NCBI GenBank assembly: GCA_046758385.1
Contig: JBHIAB010000002.1
Location: 1-53,932 of the forward strand
Direction of reading: 5' to 3'
DNA from: Candidatus Methylomirabilia bacterium
GTDB lineage: Bacteria > Methylomirabilota > Methylomirabilia > Rokubacteriales > CSP1-6
DNA length: 53,932 nt
Positions within the stretch are counted from its first letter, which is position 1. Each line of letters begins with the position of its first letter. The position numbers and the translations under genes were made by a program. A model generated the notes under the pieces. That model was given only the letters and a program-made list of their open reading frames with translations, searched no databases and was not told the DNA's origin. Of this stretch, positions 15,926-22,431 are shown one piece after another.

Positions 15926-18037
15926 CTACCCCGCACTGGCCAGGTCCAGCTTCCCCTGCCACCGGGAGAGCAGAGCCTCCCGAAGGACGCGATGCTCGGG
16001 GCGCACCAGAACGGGATCGGCCGCGACCAGTCCGAACGCCTCCTGGCGGGCTTCCTCGAGCACGCGACCATCCTGGAGCAGGTTTGCGACCCGAAATTCT
16101 GGAAGGCCCGACTGGCGCGTGCCGAAAAAGTCCCCCGGGCCGCGGAGCTCCAGGTCCACCTCGGCGATCCGAAAGCCGTCCTGGCTCTTCACCATCGCCT
16201 GAAGCCGCTGGCGCGCCTCTCGGCTCGCCGTCTCCGCGGCCAGCAGGATGCAGTAAGACTTCCACGGCCCGCGCCCGATGCGCCCGCGGAGCTGGTGAAG
16301 CTGGGCTAGGCCGAAGCGCTCGGCATGCTCCACCAACATGACCGTGGCGTTGGGGACATCGATTCCGACCTCGATCACCGTCGTCGAGACCAGGATCTTG
16401 ATCTCCCCCGCCTTGAAGGCGGCCATGATAGCCTCCTTTTCCTCGAAACGCATCCGGCCGTGAAGGAGGCCCACTCGGACCTCGGGAAAAACCTCCTGGG
16501 CCAGGCGCACGGCCATCTCGGAGGCGGCCTTGAGGTCCGAGGCCTCCGACTCCTCCACCAACGGGCACACCACATAGACCTGCCGCCCTTCCCGGATCTG
16601 CTCGCCGAGGAAGGTATAAATCCGGGCTCGACGGGACTCCTTCCTGACCCCCGTGACCACCGGCTGACGTCCCGGAGGCATCTGGTCGATCACCGAGAGG
16701 TCCAGGTCGCCGTACAGGGTGAGGGCAAGCGTGCGCGGGATGGGAGTCGCGGTCATTACCAGGAGATGGGGACGCACACCCTTGGCCCTCAGGCTGGCGC
16801 GCTGGATCACGCCGAAACGGTGCTGTTCATCCACCACGGCGAGGCCCAGTCGCTGGAACACCACCTCCTCCTGAATCAGTGCGTGGGTCCCGATGACCAC
16901 CGGGCTCACCCCGCGTGCCACCTCATCCAGCCGGGCTTCCCGTTCCTTTCCTTTCACGCCCGAGGTGAGAAGCGTGACGCGCAGGCCCAAGGGCGACAGA
17001 ATCTGCGACAGGGTCAGAAAGTGCTGCTCGGCCAAGATCTCTGTGGGCGCCATGAGGGCGGCCTGATGGCCAGCCTCGACGGCAGTCAGCATGGCCATGG
17101 CCGCCACGATGGTCTTTCCTGAGCCGACATCCCCTTGCAGGAGCCGGTTCATCGGCACCGACCGGGCCAAGTCCTCGCCGATCTCCTCCAACACCCGCTC
17201 TTGGGCCGTCGTCAGCGCGTACGGCAGGGACCTGCGCAAACGGTGCAGCAGCACCCCCGCCGATCGTATGGGGACCCCGCTCTCCTGCCCCTCCCGCTGC
17301 CGTCTGATCGCCAGTCCGAGCTGGAAGAGGAAGAAGTCCTCGAACACCAGGCGCCGGCGCGCCGCCGCGAGAGCGTCCCGACTTTCGGGGAAGTGAATGC
17401 TCCGGAGCGCCTGAGACAGCGGGAGGAGCATTCGCCGGGCGAGGACGACCTCGGGCAGGGTCTCACGCGCCTGGTCGGCGAAGCTTTCCACGACCCGCCA
17501 GAGAAGCGCACGGAGCTGGCGCTGCCCGAGCCCCTCGGTCAGGTGATAGACAGGGACCAGGCGGCCGGTGTGGAGGGTTTCCTCCTCGTCGCCGTCCAGG
17601 ATCTCGAAATCCGGGTGCTGCATCTGGAGCGGCCCGCCCTCGAAGCGGGTGACCTTGCCGTAGAGCACCAGGCGCTGCCCACGGCTCAGCACCTTCTGCA
17701 GATACGGCTGGTTGAACCAGACCGCGGTGAGGTAGCCCGACCCATCGCGGAGCAGCGCCTGGAGCGGCAGCCTGCGCTTCGCCCGCGGCGCCGGGCTGAC
17801 CCCGACGATGGTCCCCGAGCATGACTGAAACAGGCCGGGAGTGAGCGACCGGAACGGTGTCAGGCGACTCCGGTCCTCGTGACGAGCGGGGCAGAAGAAG
17901 AGGGCATCCTCAGCGGTAAGGAGTCTGAGGTGGGAAAGCAATTCCGACCGCTGGGGGCCGACCCCCTTCAGGTACCTCAGGGGTGTCTGAAGGCCCTGGG
18001 CCGTGTCGGAGGGAGGAGGGACGCCGTGAGACGTCAA
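15926..18037 (-). CDS. recG: ATP-dependent DNA helicase RecG
   Basis: LKGVGP, wedge domain WFNQPY, QGDVGSGKT, DEQH, MTATPIPRTL and QLHQLRGRIGRG. Confidence 0.97.
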   Translation of the reverse strand: MTSHGVPPPSDTAQGLQTPLRYLKGVGPQRSELLSHLRLLTAEDALFFCPARHEDRSRLTPFRSLTPGLFQSCSGTIVGVSPAPRAKRRLPLQALLRDGSGYLTAVWFNQPYLQKVLSRGQRLVLYGKVTRFEGGPLQMQHPDFEILDGDEEETLHTGRLVPVYHLTEGLGQRQLRALLWRVVESFADQARETLPEVVLARRMLLPLSQALRSIHFPESRDALAAARRRLVFEDFFLFQLGLAIRRQREGQESGVPIRSAGVLLHRLRRSLPYALTTAQERVLEEIGEDLARSVPMNRLLQGDVGSGKTIVAAMAMLTAVEAGHQAALMAPTEILAEQHFLTLSQILSPLGLRVTLLTSGVKGKEREARLDEVARGVSPVVIGTHALIQEEVVFQRLGLAVVDEQHRFGVIQRASLRAKGVRPHLLVMTATPIPRTLALTLYGDLDLSVIDQMPPGRQPVVTGVRKESRRARIYTFLGEQIREGRQVYVVCPLVEESEASDLKAASEMAVRLAQEVFPEVRVGLLHGRMRFEEKEAIMAAFKAGEIKILVSTTVIEVGIDVPNATVMLVEHAERFGLAQLHQLRGRIGRGPWKSYCILLAAETASREARQRLQAMVKSQDGFRIAEVDLELRGPGDFFGTRQSGLPEFRVANLLQDGRVLEEARQEAFGLVAADPVLVRPEHRVLREALLSRWQGKLDLASAG

Positions 18038-18041
18038 GCCC

Positions 18042-18070
18042 TTGCCTCGTTCACGAATGTATGCTATAAA
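18042..18070 (+). promoter_or_regulatory. sigma70 promoter of rpmB
   Basis: TTGCCT (18042-18047), 17 nt, TATAAA (18065-18070), with an extended -10 TG. Confidence 0.75.
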
Positions 18071-18118
18071 ACGTTCTCGTCTGCAGCAACCTTAACTCCC
18101 GTCTTCCGAGGAGTCACC

Positions 18119-18310
18119 ATGGCGCTGCGCTGCGATATCTGCGGGAAGGGACCCGCCGTCGGCTACCGGATCAGCCACGCCCACAACGCGACCAAACGGC
18201 GCTGGCGGCCCAACCTGGTCTCGATCCGGGCGCTCATCGGCGGCGGCCCCCGGCGGGTTCGCATCTGCACCCGGTGCCTGAAGAGCGGGAAGGTGACCAA
18301 AGTGGTGTAG
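18119..18310 (+). CDS. rpmB: 50S ribosomal protein bL28 (zinc-ribbon, C+ form)
   Basis: MALRCDICGKGP...SHAHNATKRRWRPNL...ICTRCLKSG. SD GAGGAG. Confidence 0.97.
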   Translation: MALRCDICGKGPAVGYRISHAHNATKRRWRPNLVSIRALIGGGPRRVRICTRCLKSGKVTKVV

Positions 18311-18339
18311 GACGCCATGGGGAAGGACCGGTGAAATGA

Positions 18340-18401
18340 CGAGGGGGTGTCGCCACACCCCCTCGGGATGAGTGCCGGTGGGAGGCCGCCACCCCCCACC
18401 G
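18340..18401. terminator. two GC-rich stem-loops between convergent rpmB and the microprotein genes
   Basis: CGAGGGGGTGT-CGCC-ACACCCCCTCG is a perfect 11-bp stem (18340-18365). A second stem is CGGTGGG...CCCACCG (18376-18401). Neither has a U-tract. Confidence 0.5.
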
Positions 18402-18417
18402 ATGACTGCGGGCTAGC

Positions 18418-18465
18418 TTATCTCTTCTTCTTTTTCTTTGCCGCAGCCTTCTTCTTTTTAGCCAT
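18418..18465 (-). CDS. Lys-rich microprotein B, 15 aa: MAKKKKAAAKKKKKR
   Basis: Read by hand: ATG at 18465, TAA at 18420-18418, SD AAAGGAGGTGA shortly upstream. Paralogous to 18554-18607. Confidence 0.75.
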   Translation of the reverse strand: MAKKKKAAAKKKKKR

Positions 18466-18553
18466 GCCCAGTTCTCACCTCCTTTCCCCCATGAGGGGAT
18501 ACCCCCTCCTGCGCTCCCATGGAGTATCTCCCTCAGGTCGGCAACGAGGGATA

Positions 18554-18607
18554 CTACTTCTTCTTTTTCGCGGGCTTCTTGGCGGCCGCCTTCTTCTTCT
18601 TGGCCAT
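18554..18607 (-). CDS. Lys-rich microprotein A, 17 aa: MAKKKKAAAKKPAKKKK
   Basis: Read by hand: ATG at 18607, TAG at 18556-18554, SD AAAGGGGGTGA, and GC3-rich codons (AAG/GCC). Starts 24 nt after the upstream stop. Confidence 0.75.
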   Translation of the reverse strand: MAKKKKAAAKKPAKKKK

Positions 18608-18631
18608 GCGCGAGCTCACCCCCTTTCAGGC

Positions 18632-19678
18632 TCAGTAGCCTATCGCCTCACGCCGCAAGTACTCGGCCTGCTCCTTGCCACGCCGCTCGTAGTGGTACAG
18701 GTCGACGTACAGCTGCGGGAGGCACACCAGCGAGAGGCCCCCTTTCTCCAGCGGGGCATGGAACACCCCCTGATCGTACGGAGCCAGGAGGTGAACATTC
18801 CCTTCCCCTTCGCCGGGACGAAGACCAAGGGATCGCCCCAGGCTCTCCGACTCTCCCTCCAGGTAGCAGTGGATCTCAGGGACGCGAATGTTGGGAGCCA
18901 CCAGGGCGGCCCCCGAATGGAGGGTAAAGGCGTAGCGTCGTCCCTGGGCCTGAGCGGCTCGGGCAATCTCCACCATGAGCTTGCGCGTAATTCGCTCCGC
19001 TGAGAAGTAGGCGGCAAGAGCGTTCTGCCGATAGGTGTAGGCCTCGCGCCAGGCCTCCAGGAGTTCGGCAGGCTTGGCCAGGCGAATCCGCTGCTGCTCA
19101 CCACGATCCACCCAGGACAGTTCCTCGAGACGCTTGACGACATTGTGGGCGTGGCCCAGGCTCACCCCCGCGGCTTGCGCGAGCGCCTCGAGCCGCCAGG
19201 CCTGATAGGGGCTGACGAGCAGCGTCCGTACCACCCGGGTAGCCCGCGATGCGAAGAGCGACTTGAGCGGGCGGGTGGAAGGGTGAACGTTCGGCTTCCC
19301 CTCTTTCTCGATCAGGATGTTCTCGAGGGCCAGGTAGCAGTTTCCGGAGAGGTCCAGGTAGCCCAACCCGTTTCGGCGGAGAATGGCGGCGCTCTCAGGG
19401 CTGATGTACACAGAAACCGCGACCGGGTAGGCGCCGGGAAGCTCGCGATGGATTTCGTTCAGGCGGGTCACGGCCGCTCTGATCTGCCGAGGCTGTCCCA
19501 GCCCGGTCACTTCCAGCACGAGTGTGTGGTCGTACTCACCCATGCGAAATTTCACAACGACATCGGTGGCTTGGCTGCCAATTCGCTCGTCGGAGGTCTC
19601 TTCCCAGGCCCTTGCCTTCGGAAAGAGCTCCCGAAGCCGTTGGACCACCAGCCGCCCGATTTGCTTGTCATTAAGCAT
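18632..19678 (-). CDS. AbiEi_2-like (DUF2186-type) type IV antitoxin / transcriptional regulator
   Basis: ATG at 19678. GLGYLDLSGNCYL, a winged HTH (RLEALAQAAGVSLGHAHNVVKRL), and C-terminal RYAFTLHSGA...PQLYVDL...RGKEQAEYL, characteristic of this family. Confidence 0.8.
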   Translation of the reverse strand: MLNDKQIGRLVVQRLRELFPKARAWEETSDERIGSQATDVVVKFRMGEYDHTLVLEVTGLGQPRQIRAAVTRLNEIHRELPGAYPVAVSVYISPESAAILRRNGLGYLDLSGNCYLALENILIEKEGKPNVHPSTRPLKSLFASRATRVVRTLLVSPYQAWRLEALAQAAGVSLGHAHNVVKRLEELSWVDRGEQQRIRLAKPAELLEAWREAYTYRQNALAAYFSAERITRKLMVEIARAAQAQGRRYAFTLHSGAALVAPNIRVPEIHCYLEGESESLGRSLGLRPGEGEGNVHLLAPYDQGVFHAPLEKGGLSLVCLPQLYVDLYHYERRGKEQAEYLRREAIGY

Positions 19679-19696
19679 CGTTTCACTTGTCCCGGC

Positions 19697-19744
19697 GTTT
19701 TCAGCATTTGCTGAAAACATAGGAAAGGTTGAAACCCTTGTCAA
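19697..19744 (-). promoter_or_regulatory. consensus sigma70 promoter overlapped by an operator palindrome
   Basis: TTGACA (19744-19739), 17 nt, TATGTT (19721-19716). The perfect inverted repeat GTTTTCAGCA-TT-TGCTGAAAAC at 19697-19718 covers the -10 and the start site. Confidence 0.85.
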
Positions 19745-19873
19745 GCAAAAAACATCCGGCACTGATATGTCGTTTGAGTTGAGCTGCAAAACGCTGGTTC
19801 AGGCGGCCTCTGGAGGCCAGTGAAAGGACCGGACGACGATGCCGGCTGAGGCCCCCGTTGGGGCCGACGACGG

Positions 19874-20251
19874 CTACTTCCCTTCTGGCTGCTCGAGCTC
19901 TTCCATCCGCTCGTCGTCGAGGCCAAAGTAATGGCCGACCTCGTGGATGACCACGTCACGAATCAGCTCGCTCATCTCATCCTCGTCGGCAGAGTCTTGC
20001 TCGATCGGGCCCTGGTAGATCGTAACGGTGTCCGGAAGCACGTTCCCGTAAAACGAGTCGCGGTGGGGAAAGTCCACACCCCGGTAGAGGCCGTAGAGGG
20101 TGTCGGGCGGGGCGATCTCCATTTCCTCAAGCGTCGCGGCGTCGGGCCAATCTTCCACCACCACAGCGATGTTCCGGAGCCGCCGCTTGAAACGACGCGG
20201 AAGGGACTTGAGGGCAGAGGAGACGAGAGACTGGAACTGCTCCCGGGTCAC
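19874..20251 (-). CDS. zinicin-like metallopeptidase family protein
   Basis: LYGLYRG, PDTVTIYQGPI and HEVGHYFG (HExxH). Confidence 0.9.
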   Translation of the reverse strand: MTREQFQSLVSSALKSLPRRFKRRLRNIAVVVEDWPDAATLEEMEIAPPDTLYGLYRGVDFPHRDSFYGNVLPDTVTIYQGPIEQDSADEDEMSELIRDVVIHEVGHYFGLDDERMEELEQPEGK

Positions 20252-20274
20252 GGTGCTCCAGCACGGGGGCAGGC

Positions 20275-22431
20275 TTAAAGCCCCTGCACGCGCTCCACGT
20301 TGATGACGTCCTCCACGTGGTGGATGGCCGTCATGATCTCCCTGAGCTGCGCGAGGTCCTCTACCTCCACCACGAAGCGATTCATCCCCTTGCGGTCCTC
20401 GGTAACGGTAATCTCGGCCCTTGTGATGTTTCCACGCCGCGAGGAGATGGCGCTGCTGATCTCAGCCAAGAGCCCAGGACGATCGCGCCCGATGTAGACA
20501 TCGATCTTCACCGGGCGAACCTTGGGCTCGGCCACCTCCCACTCCACCCCCACCAGCCGGTCCCGGTCCAGAACGCCCTGAGCCACGGTGGAACACTCCC
20601 TGGTGTGAACGGTGAGGCCGCGGCCGCGGGTGATGAACCCGACGATGCCATCCCCCGGAACCGGCGAGCAACACTTGGCGAAGCGAATCAAGAGGTCTTC
20701 CACGCCTCGAATCTTGACGCCCCCCTCGCTCCTCGCTGCGGGCTTGGCGGCCTTCTGAGGCCTGGCTGCTGGTACCCGCTCGGCCTCCGGCGCCTCGCTG
20801 GAGACCAACTTTCTCATCACCTGGTGGACCGAGGTCCTCCCGTAGCCGATGGAGGCCAGCAACTCGTCGACGGTTGGGAAGCCAAGATCAGCTAACGTCC
20901 TCCCCGCCTCGTCTGAGGCCAGGAGGTTGGACGGCGAGAGGCGGTGCTTCCTGGCCTCCCGCTCGAAGATCTCGCGCCCCAGGCTGAGTGAGCGGACGCG
21001 CTCCTCGCCCTTGAGCCACTGCTTGATCTTGGAGCGGGCGCGCGTGGACTTGACCACCTTGAGCCAGTCACGGCTCGGATGCTGTGTGGGAGAGGTCAGA
21101 ATCTCCACGATGTCGCCCTGCCGGAGGGTGTAGCGAAGGGGGACCAGCTTGCCGTTGACCTTGGCCCCCATGCAATGATGCCCCACCTCGGTGTGGACCG
21201 CGTAGGCGAAATCGATGGAGCACGACGCTTCGGGGAGCGCTTTCACGTCTCCCTTGGGCGTGAAGACATAGACCTCGTCCGGGAAGAGATCGAACCGGAC
21301 CGAGTCCATGAACTCCCGCGGGTCCTTCATGTCTTGCTGCCACTCCATGAGCTGGCGCAGCCAGAGGAACCCTCGGTCGAATCTGTCCTTCTCGCTCTTC
21401 CCTTCCTTGTAAAGCCAGTGGGCCGCGATCCCCTCTTCGGCCACCCGGTGCATCTCCCGCGTGCGGATCTGGATTTCTACCGGATCGCCCGTCGGCCCGA
21501 TCACCGTGGTGTGCAACGACTGATACATGTTGACCTTCGGCATGGCGATGAAGTCTTTGAAGCGCCCCGGCACCGGCTTCCAGAGCGAGTGGATCACACC
21601 CAGCGCCCCGTAGCAGTCGCGCACGGAGTTGACGATCACCCGGACCGCGGTGAGATCGTAGATCTCGTCGAACTCTCGCCCCTGGTCGTGCATCTTTTTC
21701 CAGATGGAGTAAAAGTGCTTGGGCCGCCCCTGGATCTGCGCCTCGATTCCCACCTCCCGAAGCTTCTTCCCCACGATGGCGATGACCCGGTTGATCTCCA
21801 CCTCCCGCTCCAGGCGCCGCTTGGCGACCTGTCGCTGGAGCTCCTCGTAATCCACCGGATGGAGGGCCTTCAGGGCCAAGTCTTCCAGCTCCGTCTTGAC
21901 CTGGGCCATGCCGAGGCGATGAGCAAGCGGGGCATAGATCTGGAGGGTCTCCTCGGCCACCTTCCGTGTCCTGGGCGGGGCCAAGTAGTGGAGGGTGCGC
22001 ATGTTGTGCAGACGGTCGGCCAGCTTGACCATCAGGACCCGGATATCCTGGGCCATGGCCACGAGCATCTTGCGGAAATTCTCGGCCTGCCGCTCCTCCC
22101 GGGAAGAGAAGGCAAGCTTGCCGATCTTGGTTACCCCATCGACGAGCTCGGCGATCTCGGAGCCAAACTCCCGGGTCAGGTCGTCCTTGGTCGCTTTGCT
22201 ATCCTCGATGACGTCGTGGAGGAGACCGGCAGTCACCGTCATGACGTCCATCCTGAATCTGACCAGCAGGTCGGCGACCTCCACGGGATGGGAGAGGTAC
22301 GGCTCGCCAGAGGCACGCTGCTGTCCCTGGTGAGAACGCTCGGAAAAGCGGAAGGCACGCTGGAGTATGTCCAGATCGGCGCCCGGCTGGTACTTCGGAA
22401 TCTCTTCGAGTAGAGTCTGAAGCTCTGTCAT
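20275..22431 (-). CDS. rel: long bifunctional (p)ppGpp synthetase/hydrolase (Rel/SpoT)
   Basis: Intact HD motif HDVIED, KLADRLHN, synthetase GRPKH/YQSLHT/EIQIRT, then TGS, CC zinc-finger and ACT domains. Confidence 0.97.
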   Translation of the reverse strand: MTELQTLLEEIPKYQPGADLDILQRAFRFSERSHQGQQRASGEPYLSHPVEVADLLVRFRMDVMTVTAGLLHDVIEDSKATKDDLTREFGSEIAELVDGVTKIGKLAFSSREERQAENFRKMLVAMAQDIRVLMVKLADRLHNMRTLHYLAPPRTRKVAEETLQIYAPLAHRLGMAQVKTELEDLALKALHPVDYEELQRQVAKRRLEREVEINRVIAIVGKKLREVGIEAQIQGRPKHFYSIWKKMHDQGREFDEIYDLTAVRVIVNSVRDCYGALGVIHSLWKPVPGRFKDFIAMPKVNMYQSLHTTVIGPTGDPVEIQIRTREMHRVAEEGIAAHWLYKEGKSEKDRFDRGFLWLRQLMEWQQDMKDPREFMDSVRFDLFPDEVYVFTPKGDVKALPEASCSIDFAYAVHTEVGHHCMGAKVNGKLVPLRYTLRQGDIVEILTSPTQHPSRDWLKVVKSTRARSKIKQWLKGEERVRSLSLGREIFEREARKHRLSPSNLLASDEAGRTLADLGFPTVDELLASIGYGRTSVHQVMRKLVSSEAPEAERVPAARPQKAAKPAARSEGGVKIRGVEDLLIRFAKCCSPVPGDGIVGFITRGRGLTVHTRECSTVAQGVLDRDRLVGVEWEVAEPKVRPVKIDVYIGRDRPGLLAEISSAISSRRGNITRAEITVTEDRKGMNRFVVEVEDLAQLREIMTAIHHVEDVINVERVQGL

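Follow-up and report, generated by a model that had tools for sequence, protein, structure and literature searches.

Analysis of a 53,932-nt stretch of DNA from Candidatus Methylomirabilia bacterium (GenBank assembly GCA_046758385.1, contig JBHIAB010000002.1, positions 1-53,932; hereafter the 53.9-kb window, to which coordinates refer unless a locus is named) showed a compact locus in which the gene for an AbiEi_2-family regulator of 348 amino acids (aa) is followed by two very short, lysine-rich open reading frames (ORFs), here called micro-ORFs A and B. The minus strand carries, in this order, rel, a gene for a Zincin_1 metallopeptidase, the regulator gene, micro-ORF A, micro-ORF B and two hairpins; the convergent rpmB and then recG follow (Table 1). 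An earlier, sequence-only reading of the stretch had placed here a TTGACA-17-TATGTT promoter overlapped by a perfect 10-bp inverted repeat, an AbiEi_2-like protein with a winged helix-turn-helix (HTH), micro-ORF A 24 nt past the stop codon of the regulator and micro-ORF B next to it, and all of these features were present as placed.

Assignment of the regulator as an AbiEi_2-family winged-HTH protein was supported by the agreement of Pfam, AlphaFold and Foldseek. The AbiEi_2 profile (PF09952) matched residues 199-346 over profile positions 1-142 of 143, scoring 27.3 bits vs. a cut-off of 21, and homologues of the regulator bear the same annotation. The AlphaFold model built from a 69-sequence alignment had a predicted local distance difference test (pLDDT) score of 89.8; an earlier model from 23 close sequences had reached 59, with the C-terminal half unmodelled. 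The winged HTH (residues ~140-200, pLDDT >90) is central in the protein rather than N-terminal and resembled the HTH domains of IclR, MarR and CosR in Foldseek; Pfam matches to winged-HTH families were weak (residues 144-208). Residues ~1-125 of the model adopt the restriction-endonuclease-like alpha-beta-beta-beta-alpha-beta fold of the PD-(D/E)xK superfamily, an additional domain that characterised AbiEi proteins, to our knowledge, do not have. Its Foldseek matches were NucS/EndoMS (E 3.5e-4, root-mean-square deviation 3.9 Å, 118 columns), AF1548, MspJI, FokI and PaqCI, and the earlier shallow-alignment model gave an identical fold result. For the AbiEi_2 C-terminal domain, no solved structure was matched by fold (Foldseek) or profile, and searches of the regulator against NCBIfam and PADLOC returned nothing significant. 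The catalytic residues of the nuclease-like motif are incomplete in the window protein, in which D39 and E56 are present and T58 replaces the lysine. Among 51 distant relatives linked to a toxin gene (described below), D39, E56 and K58 were kept in 51/51, 50/51 and 47/51, respectively; the lysine was kept in none of 18 Methylomirabilota sequences, which have T, R, S or V instead. The regulator is under strong purifying selection, with a mean column identity of 77% among 23 diverse Methylomirabilota sequences.

An exhaustive HMMER search retrieved 380 representative clusters at E<1e-30, of the same length as the regulator and 30-40% identical to it, from Chloroflexota, Actinomycetota, Nitrospirota and others. 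In all six distant relatives fetched, a gene with a nucleotidyltransferase (NTase) motif lay directly downstream, overlapping or separated by a gap of a few nt. The partners, mutually 36-90% identical, comprise 253-283 aa (one is cut to 74 aa) and share the motif IGGW..HxGSxDIDL, their Pfam matches to AbiEii and NTP_transf_8 being sub-threshold. The pairs have defence or mobile surroundings, lying within a bacteriophage exclusion (BREX) system or adjoining an integrase or PemK toxin gene, and no poly-lysine micro-ORFs were found after these toxin-linked relatives. Their promoters are built as in the window, with TTGACA, a TTTCA-containing spacer, an A/T-rich -10 and then a palindrome, e.g. TTTTCAGCA-AG-TGTTGAAAA or TTTCACCGTATGGTGAAA, at the same position relative to the -10. 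Two of them have a further palindrome copy upstream, of which that in L088 is identical to the window palindrome. This common layout indicates that promoter and palindrome both belong to the AbiEi-like gene. In one locus (L216, 1-7077) the AbiEi_2 and NTase pair was seen between a PglX-like methyltransferase and BrxL of a BREX system, and in another (L087, 2324-9077) it adjoins an integrase and a PLD-helicase (DUF3427) protein.

Within Methylomirabilota (Rokubacteria), more than 1000 homologues of the regulator at 67-80% identity were found. A profile scan of one genome per species with the close alignment detected relatives in 172 species; the best 80 of the 172 were fetched, all of them Methylomirabilota. 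A second clade of the phylum has a regulator of approximately 54% identity and the same layout. The order of regulator, one to three poly-lysine ORFs, hairpins and convergent rpmB with recG beyond was common to all 86 Methylomirabilota loci examined, and rel and the zincin gene were found upstream in most of them. The regulators of the compared loci are mutually 53-80% identical, so that the loci are not near-clonal. For the NTase partner, tblastn detected no homologue in 84 Methylomirabilota loci and none in the 53.9-kb window, where the best E was 0.14; this bears out the sequence-only reading that no NTase gene lies nearby. Its view of the locus as core, long-resident DNA likewise gained from the synteny shared across both clades and the host-like G+C content, and a vertically inherited core locus rather than a defence island was thus supported. 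Since the distant relatives occur with an NTase in defence or mobile islands, the window gene is best seen as their domesticated, toxin-less descendant. Two departures from the common arrangement were observed. In one sub-clade (L047-L083), 1-2 kb of extra DNA lies between zincin and regulator, the zincin gene being ~2.2 kb upstream. In L002 (1-4500, 8000-11047), the flanks have been reshuffled and contain DDE transposases, part of an integrase gene and a recG that is truncated, and the block of regulator, single micro-ORF, hairpin and rpmB is still intact.

The promoter and the palindrome of the regulator gene were compared across 83 species-level loci. The -35 hexamer TTGACA was found at the homologous position in nearly all 83 upstream regions (a few have TTGACG or TTGACT), and the -10 hexamer appears elsewhere as TAtgGT, TAGGTT or TAAGGT. 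In the window, TTGACA-17-TATGTT (19744-19716) is the sole sigma70-like site within 17900-20400, where 0.2 would be expected. The palindrome core TTTCAGC-N4-GCTGAAA occurred in exactly one copy, at the same place, in 83/83 loci. Together with its equivalent position relative to the -10 in toxin-linked relatives, this strengthened the earlier idea of an inverted-repeat operator, and we consider the palindrome an operator-like feature to which the regulator would bind. A half-site before the regulator start codon is kept as (C)AAGTGAAA(C/G) in most upstream regions, with variants such as ACGAAAC, GAGAAAC and ATGAAAC. The regulator itself has almost no Shine-Dalgarno (SD) sequence, complementarity being only 4-6 nt. 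The position of the SD (19680-19690, minus strand) holds a conserved ACAAGTGAAAC that resembles an additional operator half-site, and because of this, translation initiation may be unusual or may be blocked by bound repressor.

Negative autoregulation through inverted repeats has been described for AbiEi proteins (PMC3985639, PMC7319586). The window locus resembles AbiE of Streptococcus agalactiae and Lactococcus and MenA/MenT of Mycobacterium tuberculosis (PMC3985639, PMC7319586, bioRxiv 10.64898/2026.01.19.700257) in the combination of a winged HTH with an AbiEi-family C-terminal domain, in a strong promoter with inverted repeats of the autoregulating kind, through which the regulator may be repressed here as well, and in distant relatives that form a bicistronic pair with an AbiEii-like NTase in defence islands. 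It differs from them in that neither the window nor the related loci contain a toxin gene, in the additional N-terminal PD-(D/E)xK-like domain, and in its phylum-wide vertical inheritance as a core gene vs. a mobile context. Furthermore, the regulator fits AbiEi_2 (PF09952) rather than the model that applies to the characterised protein of S. agalactiae and has no sequence match to any solved structure.

The micro-ORFs downstream of the regulator are not annotated by gene callers, and they are real. Counting ORFs of 8-40 codons with an ATG start and at least 55% Lys+Arg, which left some GTG-initiated copies uncounted, yielded 140 micro-ORFs between regulator and rpmB in the 83 loci, vs. none in the other 1.34 Mb (both strands). 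There are one to three per locus (two or three in the second clade), an SD is present in 140/140, and none of the loci has lost start, stop or SD. In the window, micro-ORF B is a diverged tandem duplicate of A (34 nt, 85% identity). Proximal micro-ORFs encode 12-25 aa (e.g. MPKRKKAVKKGGKKKATKKGKRK) and distal ones 10-13 aa (e.g. MAKKKKAAKKKKK, MAKKKAAKKKKK, MKKKAKKKKK), with lysine codons strongly biased to AAG (1199, vs. 65 AAA). Up to seven DNA versions encode an identical peptide, and third positions carry the most pairwise differences. Perfect complementarity to the 16S 3' end averaged 9.9 nt (range 9-14) for the distal micro-ORFs of the 83 loci, compared with 3.5-5.2 nt for rel, rpmB, zincin, recG and the regulator. 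The SD of distal micro-ORFs was observed to reach 13-14 nt (AGAAAGGAGGTGA), the ATG being 10-11 nt past GGAGG, above the usual spacing. The possibility that these are chance, functionless frames in an A/G-rich spacer was considered, as they are very short, of low complexity and missed by gene callers. It is of practically negligible probability given their confinement to the target space, their conservation among non-clonal loci, and a micro-ORF DNA pattern that occurs twice in the window vs. 0.00 times expected; in addition, 67 of 84 metagenome matches listed end within 0-2 codons past that pattern.

The micro-ORFs are followed by two hairpins. The first (GGTGGGGGGTGGCGGCCTCCCACC) was identical in 57/83 species-level loci (e.g. 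L001 6246-6269), in which the flanking protein is 63-80% identical, and RNAalifold as well as a few compensatory changes, e.g. GGGAGG/CCTTCC, speak for its stem. Its loop is conserved as well, beyond what a terminator stem needs, and its 3' arm contains CCUCC. Pairing of the micro-ORF B SD with this CCUCC was considered and rejected, as it would form ~6 bp vs. a 9-10-bp G-C stem. The second hairpin, of variable sequence, occupies the same position in other loci, adjoining the stop codon of rpmB; as a rule, a T-rich tail on the minus strand comes after it.

Table 1. Features of the regulator and micro-ORF locus; positions are those of the 53.9-kb window.
Feature	Position	Strand	Remarks
Regulator gene, 348-aa ORF	18632-19678	-	N-terminal PD-(D/E)xK-like domain, winged HTH, AbiEi_2 C-terminal domain
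-35 hexamer TTGACA	19739-19744	-	T-rich UP-like tract TGTTTTTTGC ahead of hexamer
TTTCA matching the extra half-site	19730-19734	-	Within promoter spacer
-10 hexamer TATGTT	19716-19721	-	17-nt spacer to -35
Perfect palindrome GTTTTCAGCA-AA-TGCTGAAAAC (10+2+10), putative operator	19697-19718	-	Covers last 3 nt of -10 and likely transcription start
Extra half-site GTGAAAC	19680-19686	-	Directly before regulator start codon, at SD position
Micro-ORF A, MAKKKKAAAKKPAKKKK	18554-18607	-	24 nt past regulator TGA; SD GGGGGTGA
Extended SD AAAGGAGGTGA of micro-ORF B	18475-18485	-	
Micro-ORF B, MAKKKKAAAKKKKKR	18418-18465	-	Diverged tandem duplicate of A
Hairpin GGTGGGGGG-TGGCGG-CCTCCCACC (24 nt, GGTGGGGGGTGGCGGCCTCCCACC)	18377-18400	-	Begins 16 nt past micro-ORF B stop; unique in window
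Second G+C hairpin CGAGGGGGTGT-GGCG-ACACCCCCTCG	18340-18365	-	Inverted repeat; probable terminator shared with convergent rpmB
rel	20275-22431	-	Upstream flank of regulator
Zincin_1 (PF06262) metallopeptidase gene, 125 aa	19874-20251	-	Between rel and regulator in most loci
rpmB	18119-18310	+	Convergent with regulator and micro-ORFs; recG beyond rpmB

The gap between the regulator and the first micro-ORF ATG had a median of 30 nt and was 24-60 nt in 63/83 loci. A motif scan of the interval from the regulator start to the last micro-ORF detected no sigma70-like site in the 83 loci (0/83), under the same criteria that recovered the upstream promoter in 59/82 loci. Synonymous-site variability did not drop at the 3' end of the regulator gene, giving no sign of an embedded promoter, and no terminator was found between the regulator and micro-ORF A. 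Because of the short gap and the lack of a promoter-like site before the micro-ORFs, co-transcription with the regulator is likely and the most economical reading. These same four observations speak against mere adjacency, i.e., an independent micro-ORF array beside rpmB with its own unrecognised promoter or processing, next to a regulator that controls itself or distant targets. We regard such adjacency as rather unlikely, even though elsewhere the micro-ORF is a self-contained unit with promoter, leader, hairpins or terminator, rpmB and recG are equally syntenic, and in L002, where the upstream genes differ, regulator, micro-ORF and rpmB stay together as any tightly packed block would.

Whether the micro-ORFs belong to the regulator was further addressed by scanning metagenomes with the micro-ORF DNA pattern, which gave at least 80 loci; the figures that follow are among the matches listed and represent samples, not censuses. 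Among 84 matches, 75 were ORFs of at most 30 codons. Of these small ORFs, 29 follow a regulator homologue and 43 are without one, and as 26 of the latter 43 have at least 1300 nt of upstream sequence, the absence of the regulator is real. The 43 regulator-free copies range in G+C from 0.27 to 0.72, 29 of them have a promoter-like site at most 160 nt upstream, and many then carry conserved hairpins or an intrinsic terminator. Their peptides, MAKKK(K)AAKKKK, are near-identical to those of the locus. Neighbouring genes are mutually unrelated, coding for a DMT/EamA transporter, riboflavin synthase, a TYW1-like radical-SAM enzyme, an ATP-dependent DNA ligase, an M50 protease and a deaminase, or being secA, ftsK or rpsI. 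Exact look-ups of neighbouring proteins assigned carriers to Candidatus Moranbacteria (Candidate Phyla Radiation, CPR), Candidatus Omnitrophota, a Nanoarchaeia (DPANN) archaeon, Opitutaceae (Verrucomicrobiota) and Methylomirabilota; the Opitutaceae neighbour is a 4-alpha-glucanotransferase whose 90%-identity cluster includes the cultured Opitutus sp. GAS368.

The stand-alone copies in Methylomirabilota form a second locus in a recurrent high-G+C lineage (L154 8830-9010; also L100, L114, L118, L123, L125, L140, L146, L151, L163, L164 and L174). It comprises a phosphoribosyltransferase (PRTase) gene, a TTGACA-17-TAGAGT promoter (TTGACA-17-TAnAGT across loci), a ~50-nt leader, MAKKKAAKKKKKK, two conserved hairpins (GGCGCCA..TGGCGC and GGCCCTGTCGG..CCGGCAGGGCC) and a DMT/EamA transporter gene, and contains no AbiEi-like gene and no TTTCAGC palindrome. 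The transporter gene starts ~12 nt past the hairpin without an obvious SD, an arrangement resembling an upstream-ORF-type leader. In another lineage (L108 ~850-1100; L116, L124, L130, L155, L173), the micro-ORF was seen behind a conserved structured leader (GCATCGA ... GGTCGAnCGATGC) without an SD, with a strong intrinsic terminator after it and secA next in three loci.

The sequence-only reading had taken the micro-ORFs as the only downstream partners of the regulator, and as its possible peptide effectors. They are indeed its sole co-directional downstream neighbours, with no separate promoter detected. Since many lineages have near-identical micro-ORFs under their own promoters and no regulator, however, they are not its private partners. 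The outcome that the sequence-only reading had named as refuting its module, micro-ORFs with a promoter of their own and independent of the regulator, was thus observed, including at the second locus of the same phylum. Its proposal of a new module survives in a weak form, in which one tandem micro-gene set lies within the transcription unit of the regulator and is probably under its operator; a dedicated peptide-effector toxin-antitoxin (TA) system was unsupported. In such a TA or abortive-infection system, the poly-lysine peptides would replace the NTase as toxic effectors and the AbiEi-like protein would be antitoxin and repressor. The micro-ORFs do hold the exact position of the toxin gene in canonical relatives and have very strong ribosome-binding sites, and the regulator retains its putative operator and the purifying selection noted above. 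Copies encoded alone under good promoters are nevertheless hard to square with a toxin that needs a cognate antitoxin, and as stand-alone genes for these peptides exist in small-genome organisms and at the second Methylomirabilota locus (carriers include a CPR bacterium, a DPANN archaeon, Omnitrophota and Verrucomicrobiota), we consider this system very unlikely. The vertically inherited core setting, the variation in micro-ORF copy number from one to three and the lack of any significant PADLOC hit point the same way, and in a scan of viral contigs the micro-ORF pattern matched nothing but the N-terminal end of a longer phage protein that is unrelated.

No description of the poly-lysine micro-gene was found in Rfam, in NCBIfam, among PDB sequences or in the literature open to searching. 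Rfam detected only tRNAs at 13 stand-alone micro-ORF loci; six long variants of the K-peptide matched no NCBIfam family and no PDB chain at E<=10, the 10-17-aa forms being too short for such searches; and literature queries on poly-lysine micro-ORFs, lysine leader peptides and 'MAKKKK' gave nothing relevant. Very small, highly basic ribosomal proteins are exemplified by bL37, bS22, Thx and eL41. The longer proximal variants (22-25 aa, e.g. MPKRKKAVKKGGKKKATKKGKRK) fall in the same size range, are likewise extremely basic, have a strong ribosome-binding site and are encoded next to the gene of a ribosomal protein. They differ from them in the missing NCBIfam or PDB-chain similarity, in copy number and length that vary between close relatives, and in a common 10-13-aa Lys/Ala form that is too information-poor to point to a specific rRNA pocket.

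Alternatively, the units could act as an RNA or translation device, either as a small mRNA titrating or parking 30S subunits or ribosomes via the extended SD, or as a lysine-codon leader that senses Lys-tRNA or translation capacity and here tunes termination vs. antisense read-through into rpmB. We judge such a device unlikely, while both the rreB-like ribosome-binding small mRNA and the translation-sensing leader are live alternatives. The attenuator leader peptides hisL, leuL, thrL and pheL offer one comparison: seven to ten of 10-13 codons specify lysine, so that a very short ORF is dominated by the codons of one amino acid and followed by G+C hairpins, and at the second locus, ORF and hairpins form the leader of the transporter gene. 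Of the hallmarks of an attenuator, the window locus has the codon run. However, nothing complementary to the AAG-rich ORF is available from which an alternative anti-terminator could form, 16 nt separate the stop from the hairpin, which places the latter beyond the footprint of a terminating ribosome, rpmB is convergent so that the window has no co-directional downstream gene, and in other lineages the downstream genes (riboflavin synthase, ftsK, TYW1-like, deaminase, rpsI) are related neither mutually nor to lysine. Classical attenuation at this locus was therefore not supported. The second comparison is with rreB, a weakly translated small mRNA that binds 30S and combines a 17-nt SD with a 14-aa small ORF (PMC5711450). 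The poly-lysine units share with rreB/rreR of alpha-proteobacteria (PMC5711450) a tiny ORF (14-18 codons) after abnormally long 16S 3'-end complementarity (9-14 nt here), an unstructured or low-complexity peptide and, when stand-alone, their own promoter and a 3' hairpin. The 3' hairpins of the poly-lysine units are conserved in sequence beyond the needs of a plain terminator. The units differ from rreB in that the rreB SD extends over 16-17 nt and includes a GTG start, vs. 9-14 nt and an ATG ~10-11 nt downstream; in that aromatic residues occur in the RreB peptide, which is not rich in lysine; and in that the window micro-ORFs lie behind a protein-coding gene without a promoter of their own. 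Maintenance of the peptide sequence through synonymous changes also argues against a purely RNA-based role.

The best explanation, and one that as a whole we lean slightly towards accepting, is that of a domesticated, toxin-less AbiEi_2 repressor placed over a tandem set of poly-lysine micro-genes that are not specific to it. Its ancestor would have been an antitoxin and repressor with three domains (PD-(D/E)xK-like, winged HTH and AbiEi_2) preceding an AbiEii-like NTase. In Methylomirabilota, the toxin gene and the lysine of the D..ExK motif would have been lost and the gene fixed between rel/zincin and rpmB. A regulator dimer may bind the palindrome and repress the strong promoter, from which, judging by the anatomy of the locus, a transcript would run through one to three tandem micro-genes, each with an unusually long SD, 10-25 codons and a 3' hairpin, to end at the hairpin pair facing rpmB; with such read-through, the repressor would set the level of the micro-gene mRNAs. 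The micro-genes themselves would represent a widespread stand-alone class with own promoters in other phyla, an archaeon and a second locus of the same phylum. For their product we infer, as the likeliest option, an unstructured polycation that is made by translation and would bind to RNA or to the ribosome. More tentatively, and as a possibility that we do not hold to be probable, the poly-lysine micro-genes may constitute a previously undescribed class of translated micro-ORFs of both prokaryotic domains (10-14 codons, strong or extended SD, conserved 3' hairpin) that act on the ribosome or RNA as peptide or small mRNA, and of which Methylomirabilota put one tandem set near rpmB/rel under a repressor derived from a toxin-less, active-site-less AbiEi antitoxin.

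Several points weigh against this explanation. Co-transcription, repression and translation are all deduced from sequence, and expression of the micro-ORFs could be independent of the regulator if a promoter of a non-sigma70 type or processing of the RNA were involved. Strict synteny within one phylum can be inherited without functional coupling, and with rpmB and recG equally syntenic, gene order alone is no proof of it. The similarity of the peptides across phyla could be convergent rather than homologous because of their very low complexity; the product is a 10-15-residue Lys/Ala peptide without a demonstrated target; and the favoured model does not account for the conserved sequence of the 3' hairpin and its loop.

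As read above, the locus presents a clear case of domestication of a TA component, in which a phylum keeps the repressor and its putative operator and in which the toxin and one residue of a nuclease-like motif are gone. With its housekeeping neighbourhood (rel, rpmB, recG), it provides a concrete system for asking what role an "orphan" AbiEi protein plays, and it draws attention to a widespread poly-lysine micro-gene missed by annotation pipelines. If translated, the micro-ORFs would rank with the shortest conserved genes so far known and would bear on ribosomally made polycations or ribosome-binding small mRNAs. If they are under the AbiEi-derived repressor, a defence-system regulator would have been recruited to the control of housekeeping micro-genes. 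The question may be testable in Opitutus sp. GAS368, if this strain carries the micro-ORF.

Two further candidates in the vicinity were rejected. Rfam (17000-21000, E<=1) returned nothing except a match to the Yersinia small RNA Ysr141 at 17000-17199 (plus strand), which lies within the recG coding sequence, scores 26.9 bits vs. a gathering score of 196, and was judged a chance match. An antisense ORF at 18347-19003 (plus strand; 218 aa), which extends across both micro-ORFs and was considered as a hydrophobic peptide of the type-I-toxin kind, has no SD and an unconserved start (L001 is without the ATG) and was judged spurious; its reading LFFFFFAAAFFFL simply reflects the strand opposite the AAG repeats.

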